Positions 36,315-48,583 of a DNA stretch of 64,000 bases are shown here, piece by piece. The stretch covers positions 557,364-621,363 of the forward strand of contig CAZNTG010000006.1 of NCBI GenBank assembly GCA_964575955.1. Direction: 5' to 3'. The notes under the pieces are model-generated. The model was not told the origin of the DNA. It saw only the letters and a program-made list of their open reading frames with translations, and ran no database searches. Origin of the DNA: an uncultured Thermoproteaceae archaeon (lineage in GTDB: Archaea > Thermoproteota > Thermoprotei > Thermoproteales > Thermocladiaceae). Position numbers and translations under genes: made by a program. Within the stretch, counting starts at the first letter, position 1. Every line of letters starts with the position of its first letter.

Positions 36315-36393
36315 GCCGCCGTAGCTCAGCCTGGGTGAGAGCGCCCGGCTCATAACCGGGAGGTCCCGGGTTCAAATCCCGGCGGCGGCACCA
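36315..36393 (+). tRNA. tRNA-Met(CAT), elongator type, intronless, encoded CCA
   Basis: Cloverleaf GCCGCCG...CCCGG-CTCATAA-CCGGG...GGTTCAAATCC...CGGCGGC-ACCA. Confidence 0.93.
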
Positions 36394-37505: not shown

Positions 37506-38567
37506 ATGAGTGAACTTGAATGGGTTGATAAGTACTTTCCTAAAGATGATATTGCTAAATGTGTAGGTACTTACATCGCATTACTAGTATTGAGATTTGA
37601 GAGAAGAAATAATTATGAAAAGATTATAAATATCGATGAACTACTTCAATCAATAAAATTAAACTTAACACTATTACTTGGATCTTCAGCAGCATATAGA
37701 GCATATATTTCAGGAAGAGAATTTATAGAAGAACTTTTTAATAAGATACCTGAAGCTTTACAAGCATCTGTAAGATTTAGAATTTTAGAATATATAGAAT
37801 CTAGACATTATGCAACCATTAGAAAAAACTACCTATACCTTGTTGAAAATGAAATTTCGAAAATATCACCAACATCTAGATATATACTGTATAGAATTTT
37901 AAATGATTTAAAATATGGAAAAATACCTGTAATAGATAGAACATGTGCAGGATCATGCTATGTGTCTCGATTAGACATATCTTCAAGATATGTGAAGGGA
38001 ACTGTAGAAAGTTTAAATGAACTTATAGATGATTTCGCAAAAGTTGGAATAATTAAACCAAACTATCTTAGAATGATAATACCAGCACCATTGCTAGAAG
38101 ATTACTATATTAGAAAACTTCTAGGTAGTAAGACTACGAAAGATTTAATATCTACAATAGATTCAATATTAAAAACATTTGGATACTATCAGGTAGATAT
38201 TGGAAATATAGACTTAGGTAATAGAGAAGTTTTGAAGATTGTATATGAGAAGAAGCTTCAAGATAATACTAAGGTAAAGTTTGAAGTTTACTACTCTAAA
38301 TATCCAATATCTAGAAGTGATATAGATAAGATATTTCAAGAATCTAGAGGTAGTGTTATTAGAATATTAATATATGAGTATGATATTGATGAAGAAGTTA
38401 AGAAGATTTTGAGAGAAGTTGGTATAATACCTATACAGTCATCAGGTAGAGAAATTGATAAGTATGTTGTTGAGAGAATTGTAAACTCTATACTTGACAT
38501 AACATCACTATCATATATAGCACAGTTGAAACATACACTACTAGAGATCTTAGAATTATTATACTAG
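37506..38567 (+). CDS. Hypothetical protein
   Basis: 353-aa ORF; C-terminal alpha/beta region faintly restriction-endonuclease-like. Confidence 0.55.
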   Translation: MSELEWVDKYFPKDDIAKCVGTYIALLVLRFERRNNYEKIINIDELLQSIKLNLTLLLGSSAAYRAYISGREFIEELFNKIPEALQASVRFRILEYIESRHYATIRKNYLYLVENEISKISPTSRYILYRILNDLKYGKIPVIDRTCAGSCYVSRLDISSRYVKGTVESLNELIDDFAKVGIIKPNYLRMIIPAPLLEDYYIRKLLGSKTTKDLISTIDSILKTFGYYQVDIGNIDLGNREVLKIVYEKKLQDNTKVKFEVYYSKYPISRSDIDKIFQESRGSVIRILIYEYDIDEEVKKILREVGIIPIQSSGREIDKYVVERIVNSILDITSLSYIAQLKHTLLEILELLY

Positions 38568-38569
38568 CA

Positions 38570-38630
38570 TGGGGGGAGCAAGGGGATGGGCTCTCTCATA
38601 GACCCTCACACGAGGGTCTCAGAGCCCCAT
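38570..38630 (-). ncRNA. K-turn hairpin sRNA with 3' tail antisense to 16S rRNA (atypical pseudouridylation-guide-like), copy 2
   Basis: GGGCTCT-GA-GACCCTC-gtgt-GAGGGTC-TAT-GA-G-AGAGCCC then ATCCCCTTGCTCCCCCC; TTTTAAA about 20 nt upstream. Confidence 0.75.
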
Positions 38631-38666
38631 TAACATAGTGTTTGTAGGTTTAAAAATGTTTAAAGA

Positions 38667-38727
38667 TGTGGGGATTAGATACCCCATAGCCCCTTCATAG
38701 ACCCATAGACTGGGTCTCTGGGGCTGT
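38667..38727 (-). ncRNA. K-turn hairpin sRNA with 3' tail antisense to 16S rRNA (atypical pseudouridylation-guide-like), copy 1
   Basis: AGCCCC-AGA-GACCCA-gtcta-TGGGTC-TAT-GAA-GGGGCT then GGGGTATCTAATCCCC-ACA; TATTAAAA upstream. Confidence 0.8.
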
Positions 38728-38762: not shown

Positions 38763-39035
38763 CTATACCTCACCTTCCTCAGATGGTGCTACCTCTGCAA
38801 CAGCGTAGTTTCTACCTATCCTCTTAATCTTCACTCTAACTCTATCTCCAGGTTTTGTATTTGGTACAAATATTATGAAACCACGTATCCTAGCTATACC
38901 ATCACCTCTACGTGAGAGCTCTACAATCTCCACATCTATGACATCTCCAACATTTACAGGACTTCGCCTAAATCCACCTCTATTTCCAGACCTATATCCT
39001 GATCCTCTTCTACCACCTTTTGAAGACCTATACAT
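38763..39035 (-). CDS. Single-TRAM-domain RNA chaperone with Gly/Arg-rich N-terminus
   Basis: PV.VGD..DVEI...SRRGDGIARI.GFIIFVP.TKPGD. Confidence 0.92.
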   Translation of the reverse strand: MYRSSKGGRRGSGYRSGNRGGFRRSPVNVGDVIDVEIVELSRRGDGIARIRGFIIFVPNTKPGDRVRVKIKRIGRNYAVAEVAPSEEGEV

Positions 39036-39179: not shown

Positions 39180-39275
39180 GGGCCCGTAGCTCAGCCTGGT
39201 TAGAGCGGCGGGCTTTTAACCCGTGTGGGGGAGGAGACCCGTAGGTCCCGGGTTCAAATCCCGGCGGGCCCGCCA
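39180..39275 (+). tRNA. tRNA-Lys(TTT) with 18-nt intron (39219-39236, position 37/38)
   Basis: Cloverleaf after intron removal; BHB with CTTT/GAGG helix, TAA and AGA bulges, CCC/GGG intron stem; encoded CCA. Confidence 0.93.
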
Positions 39276-43374: not shown

Positions 43375-43444
43375 CCCCGTCGGTCTCACGGGCCTGGACA
43401 GGGCATGTAGCCCTGAATGAAGGGCTCGCGGTCAGACGGGGACA
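43375..43444 (+). ncRNA. Canonical single-hairpin H/ACA guide RNA (predicted target 23S U2593, E. coli numbering)
   Basis: CCCCGTC/GACGGGG lower stem, pocket GTCTCAC / CGGTC, upper stem, K-turn (GGA / AAT-GAA), CAGGGC/GCCCTG, terminal ACA; TATATAA about 25 nt upstream. Confidence 0.9.
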
Positions 43445-48483: not shown

Positions 48484-48583
48484 TGGCGCCGCCGCCGGGA
48501 TTTGAACCCGGGACCTACGGGTTTCTGTGCGGGTAGCCCCCGCTTAACAGCCCGCCGCTCCAACCAGGCTGAGCTACGGCGGC
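48484..48583 (-). tRNA. tRNA-Asn(GTT) with 22-nt intron (48523-48544, position 37/38)
   Basis: Perfect BHB: CTGT/ACAG helix, TAA and AAA bulges, GCGGG/CCCGC intron stem; encoded CCA. Confidence 0.96.

Follow-up and report, generated by a model that had tools for sequence, protein, structure and literature searches.

Tandem K-turn hairpins with 3′ tails antisense to 16S rRNA helix 24 in an uncultured archaeon of the Thermoproteales

To our knowledge, Pyrobaculum and S. islandicus are the only reported carriers of atypical H/ACA guides. The H/ACA-like sRNAs of Pyrobaculum (sR203-sR210), which belongs to the same archaeal order as the organism considered here, are K-turn hairpins whose lower stem is truncated and whose ACA box is degenerate or missing (PMC4652768; PMC11077068); they generally have long single-stranded regions at both ends, and in some a base bulges out immediately 3′ of the G.A pairs (PMC4652768). 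For the stem that ends in these pairs (the ‘GA’ stem), the layer counts given are 8–11 for classic guides, 10 for solved RNPs and crystal structures and 8–13 for the Pyrobaculum H/ACA-like RNAs (PMC4652768). In S. islandicus the atypical RNAs are single K-turn hairpins that lack both ACA and an H/ACA lower stem; they have been shown to bind L7Ae and Cbf5-Nop10 and to act as pseudouridylation guides (PMC11077068). The guide of sR148 is a single 3′ segment, whereas that of sR563 is bipartite, with a 5′ and a 3′ part, and directs formation of 16S Psi747 (U747), equated with yeast Psi999; the duplexes total 8–11 bp in sR435 and, in one instance, 6 bp in sR148 (PMC11077068). According to the authors of this 2024 study, distribution beyond the known carriers had yet to be investigated (PMC11077068).

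The window analysed here (a 64,000-nt stretch of contig CAZNTG010000006.1, assembly GCA_964575955.1, positions 557,364–621,363) carries two small units, c1 and c2, arranged in tandem on the minus strand, each a K-turn hairpin followed by a tail antisense to helix 24 of 16S rRNA, and this feature is real and conserved. Like the S. islandicus RNAs, c1 and c2 have a single K-turn hairpin and no H/ACA lower stem, and like sR148 they have a 3′ guide only, in contrast to the Pyrobaculum RNAs with single-stranded regions at both ends; c2 shares with some of the latter additional bases just 3′ of the G.A pairs. However, the predicted duplexes, of 16 bp, are longer than those quoted for sR435 and sR148, and no tandem guide pair directed at one helix is described in the available portion of the S. 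islandicus report.

Structure and conservation of the tandem hairpins

The source assembly has 15 contigs (1.52 Mb, 33% G+C). Together c1 and c2 occupy a 195-base intergenic gap between a plus-strand ORF (37506–38567), to which no Pfam family could be assigned, and a minus-strand ORF with a TRAM domain that starts at 38763; no ORF of at least 40 aa overlaps the c1/c2 interval. Both hairpins, predicted in an initial annotation made from the bare sequence, can be read on the minus strand (Table 1), as can a TATA-like box about 25 nt upstream of each stem, likewise claimed there. In each unit the K-turn consensus is present, with GA preceding the distal stem on the 5′ strand and, on the 3′ strand, a 3-nt bulge and then GA, and at c1/c2 this G.A/K-turn signature is confined to the minus strand. 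Below the K-turn lies a stem of 6–7 bp that corresponds to the upper or ‘GA’ stem of H/ACA RNAs, with 9–11 layers from the stem base to the second G.A pair as counted on c1 and c2 orthologs. The annotated absence of a lower stem and a 5′ guide thus holds for the lower stem of H/ACA type and for the 5′ guide, but not for the segment below the K-turn. The distance from the 3′ GA to the first tail base is exactly 8 nt in six of eight c1 orthologs and in all seven c2 copies of the genus. Folding of both units is more stable than that of any of 200 shuffled sequences (z = −4.0 for c1 and −4.3 for c2), and the hits have 53–58% G+C, compared with 33% for the genome.

Table 1 Features of the tandem units and of four further one-sided K-turn hairpins in the same genome (window positions, unless a contig is named; the rRNA matches of the four further hairpins are to relatives' sequences).
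Feature	Position	Strand	Remarks
c1 TATA-like box ATTAAAAA	38747–38754	−	centre about 25 nt 5′ of the first c1 stem base
c1 K-turn hairpin	38688–38725	−	AGCCCC-A-GA-GACCCA...TGGGTC-TAT-GA-A-GGGGCT (38725 to 38688), then AT and guide; from sequence, covariation and folding
c1 stem below K-turn	38720–38725 with 38688–38693	−	
c1 A.A layer	38719 with 38694	−	
c1 tandem G.A pairs	38717–38718 with 38695–38696	−	
c1 3-nt bulge TAT	38697–38699	−	
c1 distal stem and loop	38700–38716	−	
c1 tail	38667–38687	−	AT, guide and ACA
c1 3′ guide GGGGTATCTAATCCCC / GGGGUAUCUAAUCCCC	38670–38685	−	antisense to 16S GGGGAUUAGAUACCCC, E. coli 783–798
ACA 3′ of c1 guide	38667–38669	−	18 nt from stem base; followed by TCTTT
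c2 TATA-like box TTTTTAAA	38649–38656	−	centre about 25 nt 5′ of c2 stem
c2 K-turn hairpin	38588–38627	−	GGGCTC-T-GA-GACCCTC...GAGGGTC-TAT-GA-GA-GAGCCC (38627 to 38588), guide adjoining; from sequence, folding and paired stems of congeners
c2 stem GGGCTC/GAGCCC	38622–38627 with 38588–38593	−	
c2 5′ T-GA	38619–38621	−	
c2 bulge TAT, then GA	38598–38600, then 38596–38597	−	
c2 extra GA	38594–38595	−	3′ strand
c2 distal stem and loop	38601–38618	−	
c2 3′ guide ATCCCCTTGCTCCCCCC / AUCCCCUUGCUCCCCCC	38571–38587	−	antisense to 16S GGGGGAGCAA(A)GGGGAU, E. coli about 772–788
K-turn hairpin	C3:134872–134918	−	tail antisense to 16S 859–873
K-turn hairpin	C6:530735–530773	−	tail antisense to 23S 2090–2108
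K-turn hairpin	C6:312772–312819	+	tail antisense to 23S 1267–1282, one mismatch
K-turn hairpin	C14:16183–16229	+	tail antisense to 16S 465–476

Both units occur in the same tandem order in all seven genomes of the genus (the window and six congeners), with GA on both strands invariant in the 14 hairpin copies. In the c1 alignment 88.8% of cells are paired, compared with 37–59% in controls with slid partners, and three lower-stem pairs are altered on both sides among congeners. The lower stems of c2 were read directly, as MAFFT was unable to bring all copies into a single register because some carry an extra base 3′ of the G.A pairs; six distinct stems were identified in the seven genomes (GGGCTC, TGACCTC, GACCCC, TGACCCC, TGACCGA and TTGGCCAAG), each fully paired. 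When folded at 80 °C, all 14 hairpins form two stems separated by an asymmetric loop at the K-turn, and in 13 of them the stem adjoining the tail retains at least 6–7 pairs, the exception being the irregular c1 of one congener (G005). The same genome accounts for the only variation in the c1 guide (two base changes), which is identical in the other six. No conserved pairing between 5′ flank and 3′ end was found for either unit. An alternative fold of the window c2 with a lower stem AUGGGG/CCCCAU was dropped as a conserved structure, since the congeners cannot form it.

Orthologs outside the genus were sought with tail patterns (one mismatch allowed) in 62 genomes of the order, most of the extra matches being noise. 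In a second genus, the c2 orthologs of five genomes consist of a K-turn hairpin followed by (G/U)CCCCUUUGCUCCCC, and in one genome of a third genus (G042) a c1 ortholog consists of a hairpin followed by GGGGGUAUCUAAUCCCC; this is the one K-turn hairpin among the 17 c1-type non-16S or uncertain places read, while the c2-type places examined leave out G014 C43 and G061 C92. In a Pyrobaculum-like genus (18 genomes), none of the non-16S places read had a tail match (one mismatch) associated with a K-turn hairpin, a search that shorter guides would escape. In four of the five second-genus c2 orthologs read, a 5′ GGGGA could pair with the UCCCC that ends the guide, after which comes UCA, possibly the vestige of a lower stem and its box. 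The 3′ stem strand of the same four has a 5-nt insertion (TTAAA or similar).

A tandem duplication had been proposed as the origin of the pair. The core GAGACCC...GGGTC-NNN-GA is common to c1 and c2, and descent from one such duplication is plausible on that basis, although the c1 model assigns c2 only 15.5 bits, ranking it under two other hairpins of the same genome. The K-turn bulge varies among genomes, and a comparison of the window with loci L014–L018 and L020 gave identical c1 and c2 bulges within four of the seven genomes (TAT, GAT, AAT and GAT). In a permutation test, four matches are reached in 72 of 5040 pairings, although the genomes are related and not independent, and the shared bulges may hint at homogenisation between tandem copies or at common ancestry.

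In 14 of the 21 orthologous hairpins, a TATA-like hexamer has its centre between −32 and −22 relative to the stem, compared with 8.8% of 5000 random genome positions; six of the eight other members of the K-turn hairpin family of the genome have one at the same spacing. With the usual archaeal distance between TATA box and start, transcription of c1 and c2 would begin at, or a few bases from, the stem. Each unit should therefore have its own promoter and start within a few bases of the stem, which leaves no room for a 5′ guide in either.

Pairing with helix 24 and predicted target uridines

Neither an archaeal SSU model nor 16S motifs identified a 16S gene in the 15 contigs, the sole matches being the c1 and c2 tails themselves; the assembly contains no LSU gene and the six congeners neither 16S nor 23S, and the tails were therefore paired with the 16S of relatives. 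All 12 genes examined contain ...GGGGGAGCAAAGGGGAUUAGAUACCCCUGUAGUCC..., with longer G and C runs in one record. Over 16 nt the c1 tail is perfectly antisense to positions 750–765 of the 16S of a same-family relative (chance expectation of a perfect 16-mer, 1.4e-5) and scores 41 in an ungapped scan of the relative's rRNA, compared with a maximum of 32 for 30 shuffled tails. It complements the entire apical stem-loop of helix 24, and on its own folds into the mirror hairpin. In all six congeners the c2 tail is ATCCCCTTTGCTCCCC, a perfect 16-mer to GGGGAGCAAAGGGGAU of the relatives' 16S. On these relatives' sequences, the claimed antisense relationship to helix 24 and the presence of a U beyond each paired segment (about 789 and 799) were both borne out. 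All 12 genes have U as the junction base, at 799 (E. coli numbering) for c1 and at 789 for c2 of the congeners.

For c2, the junction would be U788 or U789. If the first A of the tail is kept in the stem, U788 becomes the junction, and a 5′ U permits such pairing in two of the seven copies; in four of the five second-genus orthologs read, the guide is shorter by one base and A787 is unpaired as well. The tail of the window c2 has UU where the congeners have UUU, and so lacks one T for an uninterrupted match to GGGGGAGCAA plus GGGGAU. On the relatives' 16S it would pair through 6 bp and 10 bp around a single bulged A, unless the organism's own 16S differs; a variant with GCAAGGGG would fit the TT. 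As the tail is one T short and the scan ungapped, its top match was instead a marginal 23S site (35 versus a shuffle maximum of 33). None of the sequencing runs listed as carrying the locus is an RNA run. Contigs of its two DNA runs were compared with a relative's 16S: among the matches listed, the pieces spanning helix 24 are gapless and none shows a deletion at AAA, but these contigs cannot be assigned to the organism and do not bear on the TT variant.

The two targets overlap by 6 nt (GGGGAU) and jointly span both strands and the loop of helix 24, so that the pairings are mutually exclusive, as already proposed, and require the helix to be unfolded.

A pseudouridine in helix 24 of 18S rRNA is common to yeast, human and Arabidopsis (PMC8351944), and since Psi999 is the sole yeast 18S pseudouridine tabulated between 766 and 1181 in the available part of PMC5699541, the two must be the same. 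In a relative's 16S, the equivalents of U788 and U966 are 183 nt apart, matching the difference between 930 and 747 in S. islandicus and so suggesting that its U747 lies at E. coli U788. The site of sR563 is thus probably E. coli 788, at or next to that predicted for c2. Unlike sR563, with its bipartite guide, c2 has no guide segment on the 5′ side. Yeast snR31 also targets the pseudouridine of the helix-24 loop of small-subunit rRNA (PMC8351944; PMC5699541), although this two-hairpin eukaryotic H/ACA snoRNA with bipartite pockets resembles c2 at its target only.

Class assignment and competing readings

Against the features of the H/ACA-like class, c1 and c2 each have a K-turn hairpin, a GA stem of 9–11 layers (within about 8–13), no H/ACA lower stem, an absent or degenerate ACA, and a guide that adjoins the stem, with an unpaired U of the relatives' 16S at the junction; the atypical architecture known from Pyrobaculum, which had been suggested for the pair, agrees with the descriptions in PMC4652768 and PMC11077068. 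In contrast, the conserved 7–9-bp lower stem and the 5′ pocket strand of a classic H/ACA RNA are missing from both. The classic distance from ACA to upper stem is 14–16 nt; that of c1 is 18 nt in the window and 16–17 nt in congeners. The ACA noted in one copy is indeed found after c1 and never after c2, but only four of the seven c1 copies have it (the window, G006, G003 and G005), the others having ACC (G004) or GCA (G002 and G001). Comparison with the Rfam families of Pyrobaculum, which the initial annotation had suggested, returned nothing at gathering level in the window: the best match on c2 was PyrR207 (RF02805; 17.3 bits against a gathering score of 60, E = 1.2), and on c1 there was no match at E up to 10.

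In our preferred reading, to which we give a probability of about 0.65, c1 and c2 are separately transcribed atypical (‘H/ACA-like’) pseudouridylation guides of about 60–65 nt. Here L7Ae would bind the K-turn, and the 9–11-layer stem would play the part of the H/ACA upper stem and dock on Cbf5-Nop10(-Gar1). The single-stranded 3′ tail, running from the stem base, would pair with nascent 16S before helix 24 folds, and the first unpaired U 3′ of the duplex would thus be presented to Cbf5. On this model c2 would specify U788 or U789 for pseudouridylation, in the helix-24 (790) loop, and c1 would specify U799. That the RNAs are transcribed, assemble into an RNP and act catalytically, and which base each would modify, we infer from sequence comparison.

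Other functions were considered for the same DNA. The plus strand of the two stretches folds about equally well (z = −3.5 for both) and contains exact copies of 16S segments, including the apical hairpin of helix 24, so that it might provide terminator or 3′-UTR hairpins for the ORF at 37506–38567, or a helix-24 mimic titrating a protein that binds this helix. This is very improbable, as the G.A/K-turn signature and, at the right distance, the TATA-like boxes lie on the minus strand, the latter also in orthologs and other family members; those members follow the same polarity logic in other contexts, and no terminator-like site was found on either strand (in a bacterial-type promoter/terminator scan, uninformative for an archaeon). 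We find it scarcely credible that c1 and c2 are degenerate C/D-box 2′-O-methylation guides in which the K-turn is an internal C′/D′ motif and the terminal D box has been lost. With CUGA or CAGA in the 5′ strand and UAUGA in the 3′ strand, the K-turn does look like D′ and C′ boxes, but there is no terminal C box upstream, as transcription should start at the stem, and neither tail is followed by the CUGA that the fifth-nucleotide rule needs. No Rfam C/D family matches the hairpins at E up to 10, SNORD45 (14.7 bits) lying elsewhere, at 38454–38513. C/D guides use 10–12 nt, which those of c1 and c2 exceed.

Some eukaryotic snoRNAs order folding in 18S maturation, and c1 and c2 could likewise be L7Ae-bound K-turn antisense RNAs that act as non-catalytic chaperones or timers of 16S folding, holding helix 24 open, one of its two overlapping halves at a time, and thereby ordering folding of the central domain, a role that could coexist with guiding. 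The duplexes are long and continuous, the overlapping targets admit one RNA at a time and each pairing disrupts the helix, and the c1 tail with its mirror hairpin complements the whole apical stem-loop. Such a continuous one-sided duplex of 16 bp could favour slow release and a stoichiometric rather than a catalytic role, and as it far exceeds the 8–11 bp of the S. islandicus guide, a chaperone-like role is a serious rival or an added function. Also against guiding, none of the eight 16S pseudouridine sites listed for S. islandicus, the one crenarchaeon mapped in full, is equivalent to U799 (Table 1 of PMC11077068). As a sole function, however, we judge chaperoning unlikely: the stem length, the 8-nt spacing from GA to tail and the junction U are the geometry of a Cbf5 guide and would not be needed by a pure chaperone, the c2 site probably coincides with a guided pseudouridine known in another crenarchaeon, and any guide whose target base lies inside a helix has to open it.

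Returning to the guide reading, we tentatively consider one extension, although it is rather doubtful: the 16-bp guide-target helix may replace in trans both the 3′ guide duplex and the missing lower stem, with c1 and c2 forming an ordered, mutually exclusive pair. The rRNA would then complete the RNP scaffold, in c1 placing the ACA-like box near its canonical distance, and each RNA would modify its own U while holding one half of helix 24 open, so that modification would be coupled to folding of the 790 loop.

If they are guides, c1, c2 and their relatives widen the class to an uncultured A+T-rich genus of the Thermoproteales and two neighbouring genera, and represent its most reduced form: transcription would begin at the stem, and the guide is a single 3′ segment of 16 nt. 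The predicted pseudouridine at U788 or U789 would be at a site conserved up to eukaryotes, and that at U799 possibly at a new one. Among the matches listed in the literature searched, no earlier report of such guides was found for this lineage; nor did that literature contain a description of a form without a 5′ region, with a 16-nt guide and with paired genes directed at one helix.

Further K-turn hairpins and protein components in the genome

A descriptor combining a GC-rich K-turn hairpin, a TATA box at about −26 and a 3′ tail identified about a dozen such hairpins in the genome, and could help to annotate guides of this kind in metagenome-assembled genomes. Besides c1 and c2, four are one-sided with tail matches of 12–19 nt to relatives' rRNA (Table 1), one of which (C6:312772) aligns over its full length with Rfam PyrR205 (22.7 bits; gathering score 35.6). 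A U directly 3′ of the duplex is found in four of the six one-sided guides, c1 and c2 included (U frequency 0.161; binomial P = 0.0077), and in five if the 12-layer stem of the fifth opens by 2 bp, into which the complementarity does reach; the sixth, also long, has G at its junction with a relative's 23S. Five hairpins have no significant long rRNA match (C6:244774–244824(+), C6:5097–5138(−), C11:37746–37784(+), C15:23882–23921(−) and C14:311–346(+)); most of them have a TATA-like box at about −26.

Profile scores above the cut-off were obtained in the genome for Cbf5 (426 bits), Nop10 (72.8 bits) and L7Ae (105.7 bits). Gar1 scored 22.6 bits against a cut-off of 29.3, and a Sulfolobus control genome fails this family too.

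Two candidates of the scan are of classic H/ACA type, with a lower stem, a two-sided pocket and ACA. One lies in the window on the plus strand (43375–43444), a single hairpin with lower stem CCCCGTC/GACGGGG (43375–43381 with 43435–43441), pocket strands at 43382–43388 and 43429–43434, a K-turn hairpin at 43389–43428 with a 10-layer stem, and ACA at 43442–43444; Rfam gave no match to it at gathering level. The other, C14:311–346(+), is a K-turn hairpin with lower stem CCCCACC/GGTGGGG and ACA. For neither was a bipartite 16S or 23S target found in relatives under a strict rule that asked for a minimum of 4 + 4 bp and of 10 bp altogether.

In a genome of the third genus of the family (G008, locus L023), a hairpin of c1/c2 type on the minus strand at about 462–511 (GCCTAG-GA-GACCCTC...GAGGGTC-TAT-GA-CTAGGC; 30 bits with the c1 model) is followed by the GC-rich tail TTGCTTTGGGCCCTTCCCC. 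The window also contains three tRNA genes, at 36315–36390 (+), 39180–39272 (+) and 48487–48583 (−), and the lengths of the last two (93 and 97 nt) suggest introns.
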